Source: a virus (taxonomy: Duplodnaviria; Heunggongvirae; Uroviricota; Caudoviricetes). Taken from it: a DNA stretch of 6,492 nt. A program made the position numbers and the translations under genes. The stretch spans positions 1 through 6,492 of the IMG/VR virus record IMGVR_UViG_2645727640_000047. One strand, given 5' to 3'. How positions within the stretch are numbered: position 1 is the stretch's first letter; each line of letters begins with the position of its first letter. The notes beneath the pieces were generated by a model. That model had not been told where the DNA came from. It saw nothing but the letters and a program-made list of their open reading frames with translations, and made no database searches. This document shows positions 1-6,492 of the stretch, piece after piece.

Positions 1-35
1 CTGTTATAAATATCTTTTATATCAGTATATTATAG

Positions 36-204
36 GGTGAACAGTTATTTATGAACTGTTCACCAAACTATTCACTGTTCACCTTTTTGATTGTTTATTG
101 AGCTTCAAGGGTGAACAGTGGTGAACAGTTGGTGAATAGTTTTTGTGAAACTGTTCACCCCTTAACATTATGAATTAAAAGATAAAATATCAAAAGGTGA
201 ACAG
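36..204. repeat. Iteron cluster of a P4 alpha-type replication origin (ori/crr-like): octamer TGTTCACC in both orientations
   Basis: Seen in sequence: TGTTCACC at 57-64, 76-83 and 152-159; its reverse complement GGTGAACA at 36-43, 110-117, 120-127 and 196-203; one degenerate copy GGTGAATA at 131-138. An AT-rich stretch at 161-195 could be the unwinding element. Established knowledge: TGTTCACC is the type I iteron bound by the phage P4 alpha primase-helicase at ori and crr. Confidence 0.7.
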
Positions 205-301
205 GTGAAGGGTTAAAACGCAAAAATTTTAATTTACTGCTGTGAGATAAAGCCTATGACAGCGAAGCACATAAAAAAAATCACAATCGCACGCCCTTGA
301 T

Positions 302-502
302 TTGACGGAACACTGGTTAAGGGTGTCGATAAAAATCATCGACCGCAACGCCGGGGAAGGATATGCGAAAGCACATCCCGAACTGATTAGCGCATTCATG
401 ACAACGGCAGCTGCAAACTTTGCCACGCTGACAGAACGGGAGATTGCCGAAGCGGAACAGGTGACAACCATCAACGTTAAAACCGGAGAGCAGACAGCAT
501 GA
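302..502 (+). CDS. Hypothetical small protein; start uncertain (TTG 302, GTG 323 or ATG 398, all in frame)
   Basis: ORF in the track; its TGA stop (500-502) overlaps the ATG (499-501) of the next gene in an ATGA arrangement, suggesting translational coupling. No family recognised. The antisense ORF 229-474 is judged less likely because the plus-strand genes form a coupled operon. Confidence 0.35.
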   Translation: MTEHWLRVSIKIIDRNAGEGYAKAHPELISAFMTTAAANFATLTEREIAEAEQVTTINVKTGEQTA

Positions 503-921
503 CAGCACAGATAGCGGCTTACGGGCGGCTGGTGGCTGACCCGCAGTTAAAGACCACCAGCAAGGGTACACAAATGACGATGGCGAGTATGGCGGTCCCA
601 CTTCCGTGCAGCCAGGCAGATGACGGAACGGCGACGATGTGGTTATCCGTCCTGGCGTTTGGCAGACAGGCCGAAGCACTGGCAAAGCACCGCAAGGGTG
701 AACTCCTGAGCGTGGCGGGTAACATGCAGGTGAGCCAGTGGACCGGACAGAACGGGGAGACGCGGCAGGGCTGGCAGGTTATCGCAGACAGCGTAATCAG
801 TGCGAGAACGGCGCGACCGGGCGGCAAAAAAGGCCAACAGGGGCAGGCTACTGATGCACTGAGCAGAGCAAAACAACAGGCGGGAAATGATGATCCGTAC
901 GGGGATAACATACCGTTTTAA
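499..921 (+). CDS. ssb: Single-stranded DNA-binding protein (SSB family), 140 aa
   Basis: The translation has an OB-fold-like core (VLAFGRQAEALAKHRKGELLSVAGNMQVSQWTGQNGETR, compare E. coli SSB [39 protein letters not shown]), a Gly/Gln-rich linker and a C-terminal tip DDPYGDNIPF (compare E. coli SSB DFDDDIPF). A GGAGAG Shine-Dalgarno lies about 9 nt upstream, and a terminator follows. Confidence 0.75.
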   Translation: MTAQIAAYGRLVADPQLKTTSKGTQMTMASMAVPLPCSQADDGTATMWLSVLAFGRQAEALAKHRKGELLSVAGNMQVSQWTGQNGETRQGWQVIADSVISARTARPGGKKGQQGQATDALSRAKQQAGNDDPYGDNIPF

Positions 922-936
922 GCAACGAGTAACAGA

Positions 937-959
937 AGCCGGAGCAATCCGGCTTTTTT
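937..959 (+). terminator. Rho-independent terminator after the ssb-like gene
   Basis: Stem AGCCGGA (937-943), loop GCAA, stem TCCGGCT (948-954), followed by a T-run through 959; it sits 16 nt after the stop codon. Confidence 0.6.
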
Positions 960-977
960 ATGGGTCCTCCCGGTGTA

Positions 978-1186
978 GTGACCTGCCACGGGGCGGGAGC
1001 GGCGCGGAAAAAGGCTAGTTTTTGCATTTTCATTCGTCATCATCATCTTTCTATAATGTTGAATTTTAAGTGTTTTTATTTTTGGTATGTTAATTTTGCT
1101 TGTTTTGTGTTCAACATACAGCGCGTTTTTTGACCTTTTTTAAAAGATATTTGCAAGATGCATTTTTAAAACATTCTGGAGCGGGT
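978..1186 (+). promoter_or_regulatory. Candidate lambda-like cos region (cosN-like 988-1003, AT-rich cosB-like 1020-1180) upstream of the Nu1-like gene; contains a perfect TATAAT at 1052-1057
   Basis: ACGGGGCGG at 988-996 is identical to the 9-mer that, as recalled, spans the lambda cosN nick (right end ...TTACG joined to left end GGGCGGCGACCT). It lies about 196 nt upstream of the Nu1-like ATG at 1187; lambda Nu1 starts at nt 191. TCGTCAT and GTTTTTATTT motifs recalled from lambda cosB also occur (1034-1040, 1072-1081). The right half of the putative cosN differs from lambda (GAGCGG versus CGACCT). Confidence 0.4.
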
Positions 1187-1672
1187 ATGGATCGGGAACT
1201 GAAAAATCTGATGCTGAACATTAACCAGCTGGCGGCGATAGCGGGAATATGTCGCCAGACTGCGGCGGCAAGGCTGAAAAATATCCAGCCAGCCGGAGGA
1301 CATGACAAGCTGAAACTCTATCGGGTGACTGACATTCTGACTTGTTTTCTTGATCTTCCCGTTCCGGCATCACTGGAAGAAATGGAGCCACACGACCGTA
1401 AGGCCTGGTATCAGTCCGAACGTGAGCGCCTCAAGTTCGAACAGGAAACGGCGCAACTCATACCCGCCGATGATGTGCGAAAAGAGATGGCTATATGGGG
1501 AGAAATCGTAAGCGAGGAACTGGAAAAACTCCCCAGTATTCTGGCACGTGATGTTGGGCTTAAACCGATGGCAGTAAACAGAGTGCAGTCAATTATTGAC
1601 GATTTGTGTAATCAGATTATCAGCCGGATGGTAAAAAATGACGTAGTGAATGAGGTCGCAAAACAGGCATGA
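1187..1672 (+). CDS. Nu1-like terminase small subunit (N-terminal HTH), 161 aa; start set at the ATG with a GGAG Shine-Dalgarno rather than the track's TTG at 1100
   Basis: The N-terminal LNINQLAAIAGICRQTAAARLKNIQPA matches the lambda gpNu1 HTH pattern VNKKQLADIFGASIRTIQNWQEQGMPV (Q-L-A-x-I-x-G-...-T-...-P). The size is similar (161 versus 181 aa). A GGAG lies 8 nt upstream of ATG 1187. The gene sits downstream of the cos-like sequence as in lambdoid phages. Confidence 0.55.
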   Translation: MDRELKNLMLNINQLAAIAGICRQTAAARLKNIQPAGGHDKLKLYRVTDILTCFLDLPVPASLEEMEPHDRKAWYQSERERLKFEQETAQLIPADDVRKEMAIWGEIVSEELEKLPSILARDVGLKPMAVNRVQSIIDDLCNQIISRMVKNDVVNEVAKQA

Positions 1673-1956
1673 TAATGACCGAATCTGAAATACTGCGATT
1701 AATCCGCTGTGCTGGTGGAATTAGCCAGTTGGCTGACGAACAGGCCGCGCAGCCGGATACAGTCACCGCTGAAAATTACGCGCGTGTGGTGGCTGAGGTG
1801 ATGCGCCGTGACGGTATTGAGCTTAACGGCGTGGATATGCGCAACATACGAACCAGAGTCCTTGAGTTGCTGGCATACCGTCGCCGTTCTCAACAACGGA
1901 GGGAGAGCGCGAAAAATACTTATCAGTGGAAGAAGCCGGAATGGTTGCGGCGGTAA
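1669..1956 (+). CDS. Hypothetical 95-aa protein translationally coupled to the Nu1-like gene; weak resemblance to the N-terminal segment of lambda gpA (terminase large subunit)
   Basis: Its ATG (1669-1671) overlaps the upstream TGA (1670-1672). The N-terminus MIMTESEILRLIRCAGG...QPDTVTAENYA loosely parallels lambda gpA MNISNSQVNRLRHFVRAGL...PQTAVEWADANYY. It occupies the position that terL holds in lambdoid phages but is only 95 aa. Confidence 0.45.
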   Translation: MIMTESEILRLIRCAGGISQLADEQAAQPDTVTAENYARVVAEVMRRDGIELNGVDMRNIRTRVLELLAYRRRSQQRRESAKNTYQWKKPEWLRR

Positions 1957-2001
1957 TTTGTTGATATTCCTGATAGCGCAAAAGTGCGTTGGCTGGTGGG
2001 T

Positions 2002-2021
2002 GAGTTGCAGATCTGCAACTC
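2002..2021. repeat. Perfect 20-bp palindrome GAGTTGCAGATCTGCAACTC with a central GATC
   Basis: The reverse complement is identical to the forward sequence. It lies 46 bp after the stop of the last island ORF. Either a dimeric-protein operator/recognition site or a hairpin; the central GATC is a Dam site. Confidence 0.5.
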
Positions 2022-2040
2022 GACCATGAAATTACGGAAA

Positions 2041-2223
2041 CTACCCGTAGTTTGGGTAGTAAGAGTAACACCCAGATTTTGGGGCTTACTCGCGATACCC
2101 AAATAAAGGGTATCTGTGGAAGAAATATCGTTTCTCATATGTGAGTACCGAGGGCGGAATTCCGCCTTCGGTTACTTATTGTGCTCATGCACAGGGAGGG
2201 GCGGGTCAAATCCCTGTGACCTG
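2041..2223. other. Non-coding cluster of inverted repeats / hairpins at the right border of the inserted element
   Basis: CTACCC...GGGTAG (2041-2059); GATACCC-7nt-GGGTATC (2094-2114); perfect 14-bp palindrome GGCGGAATTCCGCC (2153-2166) extended by wobble to ACCGAG/TTCGGT (2147-2172); CACAGGGA-13nt-TCCCTGTG (2190-2218). Contains GGGGCGGG (2198-2205) and GTGACCTG (2216-2223), both also present at 978-997. No credible ORF. Confidence 0.45.
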
Positions 2224-2362
2224 ACGTCTTCCGGACTGCCAGCCCCATCGATTTTTTATACCCGCGAAAAATGAAAAACGCTTCACGCTGGTGGGCCTGA
2301 TGCCGATAACTGGTTTCATGACTGATAGCCGGAAAATGATAACGATTAAAGCGTGTTGATCT

Positions 2363-2419
2363 TTGTTCGTGGTTGTTCGATATTGTTCGTGGAACGGTGT
2401 AGTTAATGGTGTAGTTAAT
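2363..2419. repeat. Direct repeats: TTGTTCGTGG (2363-2372, 2383-2392; partial TTGTTCGA 2373-2380) and tandem GGTGTAGTTAAT (2396-2407, 2408-2419)
   Basis: Seen directly in sequence. The arrangement resembles arm-type recombinase or regulator binding sites next to an integration junction; the function is not established. Confidence 0.4.
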
Positions 2420-2592
2420 TTTACTGTTTTTGACGAGCTTATTGTTTGCAACTCAATGAAAAATAAAGGCTAATAAGCCAAATGCTATAAATGATAGTTA
2501 TCTATCATGTGGAGTAGATTGGTCAGGCAAATAAGCTCTTGTCAGCGGCAGGGCGTTCTGCCGATAACCGTAACCGAAGATGATAACTGACA

Positions 2593-2913
2593 ATGGGTAA
2601 AACGAACGACTGGCTGGACTTTGATCAACTGGCGGAAGAAAAAGTTCGCGACGCGCTAAAACCGCCATCTATGTATAAAGTGATATTAGTCAATGATGAT
2701 TACACTCCGATGGAGTTTGTTATTGACGTGTTACAAAAATTCTTTTCTTATGATGTAGAACGTGCAACGCAATTGATGCTCGCTGTTCACTACCAGGGGA
2801 AGGCCATTTGCGGAGTCTTTACCGCCGAGGTTGCAGAAACCAAAGTGGCGATGGTGAACAAGTACGCGAGGGAGAATGAGCATCCATTGCTGTGTACGCT
2901 AGAAAAAGCCTGA
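2593..2913 (+). CDS. clpS: ATP-dependent Clp protease adaptor ClpS, 106 aa
   Basis: The translation [51 protein letters not shown]... matches E. coli ClpS as recalled; there is a 30-bp gap to clpA, as in K-12. Confidence 0.96.
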
Positions 2914-2943
2914 ATGCAGGCATAAAAATTGGGGGAGGTGCCT

Positions 2944-5220
2944 ATGCTCAATCAAGAACTGGAACTCAGTTTAAATATGGCTTTCGCCAGAGCGCGCGAG
3001 CACCGTCATGAGTTTATGACCGTCGAGCACTTGTTACTGGCGCTGCTCAGTAACCCATCTGCCCGGGAGGCGCTGGAAGCGTGTTCTGTGGATTTGGTTG
3101 CGCTCCGTCAGGAACTGGAAGCCTTTATTGAACAAACCACACCCGTTCTGCCTGCCAGTGAAGAGGAGCGCGACACACAGCCGACGCTGAGTTTTCAGCG
3201 TGTACTGCAACGTGCGGTCTTCCATGTCCAATCCTCCGGTCGCAATGAGGTAACCGGTGCAAACGTTCTGGTCGCTATCTTTAGCGAACAGGAGTCGCAG
3301 GCGGCATATCTGTTGCGTAAACATGAAGTCAGCCGTCTCGATGTGGTGAACTTTATCTCTCATGGCACGCGTAAAGACGAGCCGACACAGTCTTCTGATC
3401 CTGGCAGCCAGCCAAACAGCGAAGAACAAGCTGGTGGGGAGGAACGTATGGAGAATTTCACGACGAACCTGAATCAGCTTGCGCGCGTGGGCGGAATCGA
3501 CCCACTGATTGGTCGTGAGAAGGAGCTGGAGCGTGCTATTCAGGTTCTCTGCCGTCGCCGTAAAAACAACCCGCTGCTGGTGGGGGAATCTGGTGTCGGT
3601 AAAACCGCGATTGCGGAAGGTCTTGCCTGGCGAATTGTTCAGGGCGATGTGCCGGAAGTGATGGCTGACTGTACGATTTACTCTCTCGATATCGGTTCTC
3701 TGTTAGCGGGCACTAAATATCGCGGCGACTTTGAAAAACGTTTTAAAGCGTTGCTCAAGCAGCTGGAGCAGGACACTAACAGCATCCTGTTTATTGATGA
3801 GATCCACACCATTATCGGTGCGGGGGCAGCGTCTGGTGGCCAGGTCGATGCGGCTAACCTGATCAAACCGTTGCTCTCCAGCGGTAAAATTCGCGTAATT
3901 GGTTCGACAACCTATCAGGAGTTCAGCAACATTTTCGAGAAAGACCGTGCTCTGGCGCGTCGCTTCCAGAAAATTGATATTACTGAACCGTCGATCGAAG
4001 AAACTGTTCAAATCATCAATGGCCTGAAACCGAAGTATGAAGCGCACCACGACGTGCGTTATACCGCAAAAGCGGTGCGTGCAGCGGTAGAGCTGGCGGT
4101 GAAATACATTAACGATCGTCATCTGCCGGATAAAGCCATTGACGTTATCGACGAAGCGGGCGCTCGCGCACGCCTGATGCCGGTAAGCAAACGCAAGAAA
4201 ACCGTTAATGTGGCGGATATTGAGTCCGTGGTGGCCCGTATTGCGCGCATTCCAGAGAAGAGTGTTTCTCAGAGTGACCGCGATACCCTGAAAAACCTCG
4301 GCGATCGCCTGAAAATGCTGGTCTTCGGTCAGGATAAAGCCATTGAGGCGCTGACTGAAGCCATTAAGATGGCGCGTGCAGGTTTAGGTCACGAACATAA
4401 ACCGGTTGGTTCGTTCCTGTTTGCCGGCCCTACCGGGGTCGGGAAAACAGAGGTGACGGTACAGCTTTCGAAAGCGTTGGGCATTGAGCTGCTGCGCTTT
4501 GATATGTCCGAGTATATGGAACGCCATACCGTCAGCCGTCTGATTGGTGCGCCTCCGGGATACGTTGGTTTTGATCAGGGAGGTTTGCTGACTGATGCGG
4601 TCATCAAGCATCCACATGCGGTGCTGTTGCTGGACGAAATCGAGAAAGCGCATCCGGACGTGTTCAATATTCTGTTGCAGGTGATGGACAACGGTACGCT
4701 GACCGATAACAACGGACGCAAAGCGGACTTCCGTAACGTGGTGCTGGTGATGACCACCAACGCCGGGGTACGTGAAACTGAGCGTAAATCCATTGGTCTT
4801 ATCCACCAGGATAACAGCACCGATGCGATGGAGGAGATCAAGAAGATCTTTACACCGGAATTCCGTAACCGTCTCGACAACATTATCTGGTTTGATCATC
4901 TGTCAACCGACGTGATCCATCAGGTGGTGGATAAATTCATCGTCGAGTTGCAGGTTCAGCTGGATCAGAAAGGTGTTTCTCTGGAAGTGAGCCAGGAAGC
5001 GCGTAACTGGCTGGCCGAGAAAGGTTACGACCGGGCAATGGGCGCACGTCCGATGGCGCGTGTCATCCAGGACAACCTGAAAAAACCGCTCGCCAACGAA
5101 CTGCTGTTTGGTTCGCTGGTGGACGGCGGTCAGGTCACCGTCGCGCTGGATAAAGAGAAAAATGAGCTGACTTACGGATTCCAGAGTGCACAAAAGCACA
5201 AGGCGGAAGCAGCGCATTAA
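2944..5220 (+). CDS. clpA: ATP-dependent Clp protease ATP-binding subunit ClpA, 758 aa
   Basis: The translation begins [35 protein letters not shown] and has two AAA+ modules with Walker A motifs ([16 protein letters not shown]). A strong Shine-Dalgarno GGGGGAGG (2931-2938) lies 5 nt before ATG 2944; the track's TTG start at 2929 is not used. Confidence 0.96.
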
Positions 5221-5244
5221 TCTGATTGTTAGGTAGGTTGGTCA

Positions 5245-5280
5245 AGTCCGTAATCTCGAAAGAGGTTACGGACTTTTTGT
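5245..5280 (+). terminator. Rho-independent terminator of clpA (about 13-bp stem, GAAA tetraloop, T-run)
   Basis: AGTCCGTAATCTC (5245-5257), loop GAAA (5258-5261), GAGGTTACGGACT (5262-5274) with one G-U wobble, then TTTTTGTTT. Confidence 0.8.
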
Positions 5281-5432
5281 TTATGGGGTGGAGGAGGTTC
5301 AGACCCTTTTTTTAATGATGATGGTAAGTTGTTGATAATTAGTGCTGCGGGAAGGTAAGGATAAAAAAGGGTGCTGCAGGAGAATGGGATGGTTTTGCTT
5401 TATTAACAACGGGCTAAACGTGTAGTATTTGA

Positions 5433-5520
5433 GTTCACTGCCATACAGGCAGCTTAGAAATCGACGGGGTGCGGTAAAACCTTTGCGAACGCGTTCACTG
5501 CCGTACAGACAGATAAAATG
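5433..5520 (+). CRISPR. Orphan type I-F CRISPR mini-array: 2 repeats, 1 spacer, no cas genes in the window
   Basis: Repeat 1 GTTCACTGCCATACAGGCAGCTTAGAAA (5433-5460); 32-bp spacer TCGACGGGGTGCGGTAAAACCTTTGCGAACGC (5461-5492); degenerate terminal repeat GTTCACTGCCGTACAGACAGATAAAATG (5493-5520). The repeat matches the 28-bp Ypest/I-F consensus GTTCACTGCCGTACAGGCAGCTTAGAAA with one mismatch. An AT-rich leader-like region lies at 5290-5432. The clpA-infA position is the known E. coli CRISPR3/4 (I-F) locus. Confidence 0.85.
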
Positions 5521-5522
5521 CG

Positions 5523-5550
5523 AAAAAAAAGCTCGCACTTTCGTACGAGC
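5523..5550 (-). terminator. Rho-independent terminator of serW (8-bp stem, GAAA tetraloop, U8)
   Basis: On the minus strand the RNA reads GCUCGUAC-GAAA-GUGCGAGC followed by UUUUUUUU; it lies 14 nt downstream of the tRNA 3' end. Confidence 0.8.
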
Positions 5551-5563
5551 TCTTCTTTAAATA

Positions 5564-5651
5564 TGGCGGTGAGGGGGGGATTCGAACCCCCGATACGTTG
5601 CCGTATACACACTTTCCAGGCGTGCTCCTTCAGCCACTCGGACACCTCACC
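5564..5651 (-). tRNA. serW: tRNA-Ser (anticodon GGA), 88 nt including the encoded CCA
   Basis: The reverse complement reads GGTGAGGTGTCCGAGTGGCTGAAGGAGCACGCCTGGAAAGTGTGTATACGGCAACGTATCGGGGGTTCGAATCCCCCCCTCACCGCCA, with the anticodon loop CUGGAAA, a long variable arm and the T-loop GGTTCGAATCC. Confidence 0.95.
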
Positions 5652-5693
5652 AAATTGTTTTGTCGCCTGACCTCATGGGTGGCAACGGGGCGC

Positions 5694-5722
5694 TACTATA
5701 GGGAGTTGGAGTAAAACGGTCA
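5694..5722 (-). promoter_or_regulatory. Candidate sigma-70 promoter of serW (-35 TTGACC, 17-bp spacer, -10 TATAGT, GC-rich discriminator)
   Basis: On the minus strand: TTGACC (plus 5717-5722), 17 bp, TATAGT (plus 5694-5699), followed by AGCGCCCC, as is typical of stringently controlled tRNA promoters; about 40 nt upstream of the mature tRNA 5' end. Confidence 0.5.
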
Positions 5723-5840
5723 AGAAGAATTTTAATGATAATTATTGTTTGCTCATACTGTAAACAAGTTGTGCAGTATATCTACATCGAGACAAGTTAC
5801 GGACTTATACTTCCAAAGTACTTCATACATATCACAAAAT

Positions 5841-5862
5841 AAAAAGGCCGGTTAAACCGACC
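5841..5862 (-). terminator. Rho-independent terminator of infA
   Basis: On the minus strand the hairpin GGUCGG-UUUAA-CCGGCC (plus 5846-5862) is followed by a U-run (plus 5841-5845); it lies about 40 nt downstream of the infA stop codon. Confidence 0.6.
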
Positions 5863-5904
5863 TTTTACTCGTTCTTTCTCTTCGCCCATCAGGCGGTAAA
5901 ACAA

Positions 5905-6126
<222 letters not shown>

Positions 6127-6492
6127 ATCCTCTGGGGTATCACTACCGTAATTTGAACCGGCAAGATAATGCCGAAGTTCTGTAAATAAGTAAAGATTTG
6201 CGCGCTAAATCGCAACAAACAGGTTCGGCACATTACTCCGAAAACACACGGCTAAGCCGCACCAAAAGCGCAACGTATAAGGGAGCGGTGAGATAAACGA
6301 TGGGCGTTACCTGACGCGAAAAATTCCTTATCGGCAGCGGGGTAATGAGCGTAACCAACTCTGCGACCGCAATTATAACACTCTGGGGAGAAATGTGCCG
6401 AAAACATTCATTCTTGTGGTGAAAACAAGGGAAGGTGCGAATAAGCGGGGAAATACTTCTCGGCTGACTCAGTCATTTCATTTCTTCATGTT

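Follow-up and report, generated by a model that had tools for sequence, protein, structure and literature searches.

A lambda-type cos site and a DUF1441-family small-terminase paralogue in a phage-inducible chromosomal island of Escherichia coli

The stretch of DNA described here (hereafter the window) comprises 6,492 nucleotides, positions 1 to 6,492 of IMG/VR record IMGVR_UViG_2645727640_000047, and is part of an Escherichia coli chromosome, its left 2.4 kb being the right end of an inserted element. This element, which lies between cspD and clpS and measures 7.8 kb, is a phage-inducible chromosomal island (PICI) and a sister of the prototype island EcCICFT073. Within the window it carries a cos site, a gene for a 161-aa small-terminase (TerS) paralogue, an open reading frame of 95 aa (ORF95), a non-coding right arm and the attachment site attR. 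The original prediction, made from the letters of the window, had proposed a satellite with a lambda-like cos site and a Nu1-like TerS that would borrow the large terminase (TerL) and capsid of a helper phage, and had held that the identity of the element and of its helper could not be determined.

The island and its packaging module

The full element was recovered by way of a 98.7%-identical copy in E. coli strain 2017.18.02CC (locus L001; other L numbers denote further loci compared), where cspD/yljB and clpS flank it. In order, its genes and sites are tyrosine integrase (10616-11854), a 69-aa helix-turn-helix (HTH) gene, Icd-like, DUF4222, D5_N primase, iterons, an 81-aa gene, SSB, cos, terS, orf95 and attR. 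Equivalents of the 69-aa HTH gene behind the integrase carry PF05930 Phage_AlpA in L011 and L025. The 24-nt att core GGTGTAGTYAATGGTGTAGTTAAT is found at L001 positions 10569 and 18395, 7,826 bp apart, the latter corresponding to window position 2396. In the window the attR core (GGTGTAGTTAATGGTGTAGTTAAT) occupies 2396-2419 on the plus strand, and its partner attL, which in L001 directly precedes the integrase gene, is located 7,826 bp further upstream. The element thus has an integrase with flanking att direct repeats at a specific site, an AlpA-type regulator followed by a co-directional primase/replication module with an origin, and a small size (7,826 bp between the att cores) without lysis, tail or complete head genes, which is the layout of Gram-negative PICIs described by Fillol-Salom et al. 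2018 (PMC6092414). The gene map of the full L001 element contains no TerL, portal, capsid, tail or lysis genes. Terminase and capsid genes in the part left of the window, which would have pointed to an ordinary prophage, are absent as well, this part of L001 holding only integrase, AlpA, Icd-like, DUF4222, primase, SSB and small ORFs, and the proposal of a satellite with cos and TerS that depends on the TerL and capsid of a helper agrees with this gene content. Neither the sid, psu and delta genes nor the P2-type cos of P4-like satellites were found, the cos being of lambda type; the set of own capsid, portal, HNH, TerS and TerL genes of capsid-forming PICIs (cf-PICIs) is lacking in both L001 and the window. 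What had been considered indeterminable was determined by comparison: the element is a PICI, and its likely helpers are phages with a DUF1441-type TerS.

The cos site begins with a cosQ-like heptamer, GGGTCCT (962-968, plus strand), which precedes the predicted nick by 29 nt, as against 30 nt in lambda, and is invariant in all cos copies aligned, from phages and islands alike. On alignment with the lambda ends, cosN comes to lie at 986-1007 (plus strand), where CCACG, GGGCGGGAGCGG and CGCGG follow one another. The predicted nicks, after 990 on the top strand and after 1002 on the bottom strand, would leave a 12-nt 5' overhang, GGGCGGGAGCGG (991-1002), the predicted top-strand nick falling between ACG and GGGCGG. 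From left flank to right flank lambda cosN reads GGGTCCTTTCCGGTGATCCGACAGGTTACG, GGGCGGCGACCT and CGCGGG, and the window reads GGGTCCTCCCGGTGTAGTGACCTGCCACG, GGGCGGGAGCGG and CGCGGA. Identical to lambda are the cosQ heptamer, the ACG before the nick, the CGCGG that follows the overhang, and seven of the 12 bases of the overhang itself. The other five differ; the original prediction had remarked upon divergence in the right half of cosN. The GenBank record of phage cdtI, with its ends as deposited, begins with GGGCGGGAGCGT and ends with CTGCCACG, which is exactly the lambda-predicted nick.

The significance of these motifs was assessed with 200 shuffles of the window. The 9-mer ACGGGGCGG, previously equated with the lambda cosN junction, occurs once in the window (988-996, plus strand); the shuffles gave a mean of 0.06 matches, with at least one match in 12 of the 200, so that the 9-mer alone is weak evidence. 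The composite GGGTCCT-N16-22-ACGGGGCGG (lambda cosQ heptamer plus left half of cosN) also occurs once (962-996, spacer N19), was found in none of the shuffles, and upholds the assignment.

The 184 nt that follow (1003-1186, plus strand) form the cosB-equivalent spacer and terS leader, which is homologous to the corresponding phage spacer, with 77-81% identity to phi458 and mEp460 and near-identity to prophage L014 in the alignments. In all DUF1441 phages the first ~45 nt are conserved; the stretch from ~1043 to 1135 varies in step with the DNA-binding half of TerS and is a putative specificity cassette, and before the terS ATG stands a conserved TTGCAAGATGCATTTTTAAAACATTCTGGAGCGGGT. Compared with the region upstream of terS in phi458, mEp460 and their relatives, window positions 962-1190 as a whole are 77-81% identical, with a weaker match to Stx phages. 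In all the DUF1441 phage loci examined, the cosQ-cosN motif precedes terS. The spacer lacks the R and I1 sequences of lambda, and a search for lambda-like R-site repeats in cosB returned only short, type-specific inverted repeats. The description of the site as lambda-like therefore holds for cosQ and the left half of cosN and fails for cosB, which is unrelated to lambda cosB, the full-length homology being to the cos of DUF1441 phages. Judged by its sequence, the site is a complete cos of lambda type (cosQ, cosN and cosB-equivalent), homologous to that of lambdoid phages which combine a DUF1441 TerS with a gpA-like TerL (phi458, mEp460, Ayreon, cdtI, Stx phages and many prophages). Directly before cosQ, at 929-957 on the plus strand, lies a terminator-like hairpin with a T-run, GAAGCCGGAGCAATCCGGCTTTTTTAT, which was read directly and is unlisted by the terminator scan; equivalent hairpins with a T-run precede cos in EcCICFT073 and in L018, L021 and L030.

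Counted from the predicted left end (991 = nt 1), terS (1187-1672, plus strand) starts at nt 197, and lambda Nu1 starts at nt 191, in keeping with the lambda-like spacing noted at the outset. Its 161-aa product is a DUF1441 protein (PF07278, 2e-35; 122 bits against a cut-off of 35.1) and matches PHROG 141 (phrog_141, 5e-57), annotated 'terminase small subunit'; Pfam Phage_Nu1 does not match it at E<1. The window protein also matches phrog_57 at 8.8e-8, and lambda Nu1, which scores 1e-76 against its own family PHROG 57, matches phrog_141 at 5.6e-8, and these reciprocal matches indicate that the DUF1441/PHROG 141 and Nu1 families are remote relatives. An hhalign comparison of the 161-aa family with Nu1 aligned the HTH only (E = 0.0025). 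The term 'Nu1-like small terminase' was right as to position and superfamily; of the profiles against which a search had been advised, the small-terminase profiles match and Phage_Nu1 does not, the Pfam family being a different one.

The closest relatives in phage records, at 65-71% identity, belong to phi458, mEp460, Ayreon and PhiR40_1, followed at greater distance by mEp043/mEp213, Stx phages, VT1-Sakai and Gifsy-2, and the protein is 65-85% identical to phage genes directly followed by TerL. No phage record in INPHARED contains the island-type protein, the best match being 71% identical. In phages the DUF1441 gene is situated between cos and a gene for a 700-aa TerL with GpA_ATPase and GpA_nuclease domains (+0 to +20 nt), followed by a W-like gene and the portal gene; family membership and this place between cos and a gpA-type TerL in phages identify the protein as a small terminase of DUF1441/Nu1 type. 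The AlphaFold2 (AF2) model (pLDDT 78.7) shows a winged HTH (wHTH), a long helix at 68-87 and a helical C-terminal half. The N-terminal wHTH consists of helices 12-19 and 23-29, strands 37-39 and 42-46 and helix 47-55, with pLDDT 82-88. The protein divides into wHTH (~1-55), invariant central helix (~68-93) and island-specific C-terminal half (94-161). In a Foldseek search of the model against PDB all matches had E > 0.1; MerR-type wHTH proteins led, and lambda TerS (6hn7_B) ranked 15. PDB sequence searches gave nothing meaningful, either for the single 161-aa protein (no chain with E < 1) or for a 32-sequence profile. The cos-terS module is present in 187 of 5,426 complete E. coli genomes (~3%) and in other Enterobacteriaceae, and terS is conserved and intact in the 187 genomes and in the other genera.

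Mosaic TerS and relatives with two cos sites

An alignment of 32 family members, with scoring of 120, divides TerS near residue 93 into two halves. The N-terminal half (wHTH and linker) occurs in at least 3-4 types, each present in both phages and islands. The window protein has the type of prophage group L014-L017 and differs in this half from L014 by 12 synonymous and no non-synonymous changes; island L018 differs from phi458 by five synonymous and no non-synonymous changes, and island L025 carries the N-terminal half and cosB of the VT1-Sakai type. The cosB-equivalent spacer co-varies with the type of N-terminal half in at least 3-4 cassettes, which fits this half as the reader of cosB. The DNA-binding half of TerS and cosB thus appear to move together as cassettes common to phages and islands.

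Beyond the central helix KAWYQSERERLKFEQETAQLIP, which is invariant in phage and island TerS, the form of the C-terminal half depends on the kind of element. A single form, ending in IISRMVKNDVVNEVAKQA, is common to all islands, with synonymous divergence (dS) of at most 0.09 among them; phages have other forms, with an acidic tail. Between islands and phages dS is saturated and the ratio of non-synonymous to synonymous divergence (dN/dS) is ~0.16, which indicates that the split is old and that the island form is under selection. Among 77 species-representative loci surveyed for their tails, 70 have TerL directly downstream; the net charge of the last 20 residues is -2 to -9 in 67 of these 70 orthologues and 0 to +1 in the islands. 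The island protein also lacks the phage-conserved motif VQVLETxPDxLERD, and its match to the PHROG Nu1 profile ends at profile position 165, as against 184 for phi458 TerS. In loci of Phytobacter, Kosakonia and an uncultured member of the Enterobacteriaceae the island architecture (capsid fusion, terS, no TerL) is combined with another non-phage tail.

In lambda, the C-terminus of TerS (the last ~40 residues) binds the N-terminus of TerL. The divergence of phage TerL N-termini together with TerS C-terminal halves (47% identity between phi458 and Sakai in the first 80 columns, 73% in the rest) is expected from this rule. The island C-terminal half is the same across types of N-terminal half and does not track the TerL type of the helper. 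With the acidic tail absent and the C-terminal half forming an island-only lineage, a TerL-binding C-terminal segment is not apparent from the sequence.

In the majority of genomes with the module, the match to the window begins only at position 954. Ecol_224 (L030) contains the same island with an additional 2,541 bp between SSB and terS, encoding a 68-aa protein and a fusion of ClpP-type protease and major capsid protein (57% identical to the fusion of the helper-type prophage). This segment is flanked by two direct cos copies (7473-7720 and 10009-10233); two direct cos sites of differing cosB type, on either side of such a fusion gene, are also present in L025 and L021-L024. In L030, cos1 has the cosB of another phage group (cdtI, HannyBb, Tritos; 93-95% identity) and cos2 the cosB matched to the island's own TerS, which suggests that one island can use two helper classes. 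The single cos of the window carries the alleles of L030 cos1 to the left of cosN and those of cos2 to the right; the cos of L001 has the same hybrid pattern, with T instead of G at overhang position 12. Such hybrid alleles are as expected from a deletion between two cos repeats, and the window copy appears to be a capsid-less derivative of islands which mostly carry a capsid-protease gene and two cos sites.

The deletion could have come about by homologous recombination between the cos repeats, or by a terminase that started at cos2 and cut at the next cos1, which would yield a packaged 7.8-kb unit without the capsid module. The crossover positions favour the terminase route by at most ~five-fold, and neither site has a fixed set of marker alleles, cos1 of L114 carrying cos2-type markers; the hybrid cos was therefore set aside as proof of a terminase-mediated deletion. 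Other capsid-less forms are L115, with a single cos of another cassette, and L114, with an internal deletion and both cos sites kept. The existence of capsid-less forms agrees with the published statement that PICIs can be transferred without their capsid genes (PMC10111431).

Two further arrangements were observed among the relatives. In GCA_031665325.1 (JARKNJ010000001.1; L018/L019) two capsid-bearing island copies stand in tandem, head to tail, beside the allantoin gene cluster. A third packaging variant occupies the same cspD-clpS site in L011-L013 (9297-9839), with lambda E-like capsid and D-like decoration genes and a 180-aa TerS. Pfam Phage_Nu1 matches this TerS only at residues 64-147, giving it a Nu1-like C-terminal half and a divergent N-terminus, the reverse of the mosaic of the window protein.

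ORF95, the right arm and neighbouring sequence

ORF95 (1669-1956, plus strand; phrog_1561, 1.4e-51) has its ATG at 1669, overlapping the terS stop codon TGA at 1670-1672 (junction ATGATAATG), and a second ATG at 1675, which is the RefSeq start and gives 93 aa; its stop lies at 1956. The succession of terS, a 95-aa ORF and the end of the element at attR (2396-2419), without TerL, is as originally described. The proposed coupling to terS is real in so far as the two genes overlap, and does not extend to a TerS-specific partnership, ORF95 being the last gene of a PICI family. Members of its family follow TerL in cf-PICIs (L007-L010), a Nu1-type TerS in L011-L013, rppA in EcCICFT073 and the DUF1441 gene here, and in the contexts compared are always last before attR. 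A role as TerS-specific partner was ruled out by these contexts, and one as a remnant or decoy of the TerL N-terminus was rejected in view of the lack of similarity (BLASTP E = 5.4). The family comprises 875 clusters of homologues, all unnamed, and is under purifying selection (dN/dS 0.17-0.51). It was not found in INPHARED phages apart from one weak match, has no match in PDB, Pfam, NCBIfam or PADLOC, and gave a poor AF2 model (pLDDT 67) with no fold match. On this comparative evidence ORF95 is a conserved last or backbone gene of the PICI family, not a terminase component.

The non-coding right arm (1957-2392, plus strand) consists of stable hairpins (~1991-2245) followed by TTGTTCG repeats beside attR, and is 100% identical in L001, L025 and L030. 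Within its part 1957-2290 a long-range stem encloses six or seven hairpins of very high stability (core ~1991-2245); the RNA folding energy is -136.7 kcal/mol as compared with -96 +/- 6 for shuffles (z = -6.7). No Rfam match was obtained for 1957-2290. Of the 5,426 E. coli genomes, 349 contain at least 80% of this part and 1,692 contain pieces of it. It is left unannotated throughout and, in all contexts examined, is situated at the right end of a PICI after the ORF95-family gene. It could be a structured RNA or provide DNA-level sites for integrase or excision.

At the left end of the window, positions 1-220 contain ~8 GGTGAACAG iterons in both orientations, read directly and located immediately downstream of the primase gene (outside the window); the equivalent part of L001 holds repeat families D2, D4, D7 and D10. 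These iterons are presumed to be the replication origin of the island. The SSB gene (499-921, plus strand; Pfam SSB, 7e-16; phrog_44) is the last gene before cos and is annotated as SSB in L001 and L030. Between origin and SSB, the 81-aa island gene (phrog_1231; window 256-502) is frameshifted by a run of eight A at 272-279, as against seven in L001 and L030: the ATG at 256 meets a stop after 14 codons, and the remainder reads from a TTG at 302. The additional A may represent a sequencing error, a mutation or a slippage-prone tract. The right part of the window contains clpS (2593-2913), clpA (2944-5220), a tRNA-Ser gene (5564-5651, minus strand) and infA (5905-6123, minus strand). An orphan mini-array between clpA and tRNA-Ser (5432-5520) comprises two type I-F CRISPR repeats, the second degenerate, and one 32-nt spacer (Rfam CRISPR-DR4, 45.8 bits); no cas genes are located within the window.

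Proposed packaging mechanism and comparison with known systems

As a whole, the observations are best explained, with rather more confidence than doubt, by a PICI packaging module in which a helper's gpA-like TerL acts at the copied cos, with the TerS paralogue serving, on the preferred reading, as an adaptor. Upon helper induction the island would excise, replicate from the iteron origin and form concatemers. The helper TerL would then nick cosN, leaving 12-nt GGGCGGGAGCGG ends, and about five island units (39.1 kb, or 87% of the 44.85-kb phi458 genome) would fill a helper-sized head; E. coli PICIs have been reported as packaged in phage-length concatemers. The 161-aa protein should bind the island cosB, because its wHTH half and central helix are the same as those of the cognate helper TerS. 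As to its mode of action, we lean, tentatively, towards a TerS-derived adaptor that forms mixed oligomers with helper TerS, like Rpp in EcCICFT073, which would bring the helper terminase to the island cos and draw helper TerS away from phage packaging. Rpp binds helper TerS, is without the TerL-binding end and redirects the terminase to the island cos (PMC6739421, PMC9026076). The adaptor is favoured because the acidic tail has been lost, the C-terminal half ignores the TerL type, the dimerisation helix and DNA-binding half are unchanged, and the gene has the position of rppA.

A simpler reading, nearly as likely as the adaptor and a serious possibility, is a classical satellite TerS as in pac-type Staphylococcus aureus pathogenicity islands (SaPIs), which would bind the island cosB and recruit helper TerL directly, with helper TerS unneeded; the island-type C-terminal half would then be just another TerL-binding variant. 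Satellite TerS of this kind has precedent in SaPIs (PMC6092414, PMC6739421), and the window protein is of full length, alignable end to end with phage TerS (161 against 158-164 aa), with a C-terminal half under purifying selection and a Nu1-family profile match at residues 70-144. The acidic tail common to 67 of the 70 phage orthologues and the VQVLETxPDxLERD motif are, however, absent, and one island C-terminal half is joined to the N-terminal halves of helpers with strongly differing TerL N-termini. It is improbable that cos mimicry alone is at work, as in P4 and the cos-type SaPIbov5, with the helper's TerS-TerL reading the copied cos and the island TerS being a dominant-negative interference factor or dispensable. 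The near-identity of island cos and cognate prophage cos, cosB included (window and L014), would suit such mimicry, as would the second, cdtI-type cos of the relatives, which has no matching island TerS and would be usable only by the helper's own TerS; but a dominant-negative protein of the same DNA specificity would also block the island's own cos, and terS has been kept intact in the 187 genomes and in other genera. Although the cos-terS segment is clearly of phage origin, a decaying lambdoid prophage in which cos and terS were left after deletion of the late genes is scarcely credible in view of the complete PICI gene set with att repeats, the purifying selection on both the island-only C-terminal half and ORF95, the same architecture at several chromosomal sites and in other genera, and the lack of any INPHARED record with the island-type protein (best match 71% identical).

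Several points weigh against the adaptor module as described. The likeness to solved TerS and Rpp structures is weak (Foldseek E > 0.1; hhalign E = 0.0025 for Nu1 and 0.06 for RppA). A terminator-like hairpin stands before cos, and no sigma-70-like promoter was detected on the plus strand between 955 and 1187. In Rpp systems the cosB of the island differs from that of the helper; here every island cosB type also occurs in some phage, so that a shift in specificity would be apparent only with a resident helper of another cassette. The island-specific C-terminal half could be a mere clade marker, and any double crossover with a phage has to end within terS, homology being absent further downstream. 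Cleavage, packaging and the protein contacts are predictions, and no helper genome lies within the window.

A wider scenario, which we consider rather unlikely in its entirety, would make the protein a young counterpart of Rpp: a terminase turned adaptor that retains a DNA-binding half of helper type and the invariant dimerisation helix, has lost TerL binding, forms mixed oligomers with any DUF1441 helper TerS, steers TerL to the island cos and deprives the phage of TerS. The cosB and DNA-binding cassettes would be swapped in a packaging arms race, two-cos islands would use two helper classes, and packaging from cos2 to cos1 would now and then give rise to, and fix, capsid-less mini-islands like that of the window.

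High-frequency transfer of virulence and defence genes is a property of PICIs, and which phages can move these islands depends on the way in which they capture the helper's packaging motor. PICIs, their cos sites, Rpp, satellite TerS genes and PICI capsid genes were already known, and two strategies have been worked out in E. coli, Rpp and the complete self-encoded capsid and terminase of the cf-PICIs. The island family points to a third, consisting of a full copy of the helper cos and a TerS paralogue that exchanges its DNA-binding half with phages and keeps an island-specific C-terminal half. New are the cassettes of N-terminal half and cosB common to phages and islands, the island-specific C-terminal half without acidic tail, and the DUF1441 gene in the rppA slot. 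The searchable literature describes no cos-type PICI with a DUF1441 TerS paralogue, helper-identical DNA-binding cassettes and an island-specific C-terminal half; the papers found to mention DUF1441 do not deal with satellites, and those citing Rpp report no such variant. If the adaptor reading is true, the family shows a route from a terminase gene to an Rpp-like hijacker and offers a direct system to map the DNA-, TerS- and TerL-binding parts of a cos-phage TerS. Stx- and Cdt-converting phages are among the likely helpers, and the islands may therefore affect the spread of toxin phages.

With cf-PICIs (bioRxiv 10.1101/2022.09.08.507074) the island has in common the backbone of int, AlpA, DUF4222, primase and SSB, in some cases the cspD-clpS site, and the terminal ORF95-family gene (L007-L010). 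They encode capsid, protease, portal, connectors, HNH, TerS (Terminase_4) and TerL; of these the window island has a TerS alone, and that of an unrelated type. Like P4 and SaPIbov5 it carries a copy of a helper cos, and the capsid homologue of its relatives (the 57% identical fusion of ClpP and major capsid protein) is comparable to Ccm of SaPIbov5; unlike them it adds a TerS paralogue, and the window copy has lost the capsid gene. From P4 it differs further in having no sid, psu or delta genes and a cos that is not of P2 type. Pac-type SaPIs likewise combine a satellite-encoded small-terminase homologue with helper TerL and have no TerL of their own. SaPI packaging is headful, whereas cos packaging is predicted here; the DNA-binding half is divergent in the SaPIs, while in the window protein it is identical to the helper's and the C-terminal half is divergent; and no Ppi homologue was identified in the window island. 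With lambda the island has the cosQ heptamer, the left half of cosN with its flanks and the cos-to-terS spacing (197 against 191 nt) in common, and with gpNu1 the N-terminal wHTH, a gpA-type TerL as the next gene in phages and reciprocal PHROG matches of ~1e-7 to 1e-8; it differs by the absent Phage_Nu1 match, the unrelated cosB and the five of 12 overhang bases.

The closest known system is that of EcCICFT073 and other Rpp-type E. coli PICIs (Fillol-Salom 2018, PMC6092414; Fillol-Salom 2019, PMC6739421; Murialdo & Feiss 2022, PMC9026076). The window gene is a recognisable full-length DUF1441 TerS paralogue and not Rpp: PDB searches with the single protein (no chain with E < 1) and with the profile gave no homology to RppA or RppC, hhalign against RppA covered 23 columns of the HTH (E = 0.06), and RppA itself matches the Nu1 PHROG only at residues 7-47. 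EcCICFT073 has helpers with Nu1-type TerS (lambda, phi80, 21), a cosB unique to the island and an inverted cos2; the window island has DUF1441-TerS phages as likely helpers, a cosB common with phages, and relatives whose second cos is direct and of another phage type. The att core of EcCICFT073 (GGTGTAGTTAATGGTGTAGT, L031 4104-4130) is almost the same as window 2396-2419, despite a different site (beside phoQ). The right end of EcCICFT073 (L031 1-4130) contains E-like and D-like capsid genes, a hairpin with T-run, cos1, rppA (144 aa), the inverted cos2, a 93-aa gene, a non-coding arm and attR. Both islands thus have a terminator-like hairpin, a lambda-type cosQ-cosN, a wHTH gene, ORF93, a non-coding arm and the attR core, without TerL, and the 93-aa gene is 73% identical to ORF95. 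The DUF1441 gene, between the island cos and the ORF93-family gene, occupies the slot of rppA (L031 2529-3655 against window 962-1956), and in both islands the wHTH protein resembles helper TerS in its DNA-binding part and is without a TerS-like C-terminal tail.

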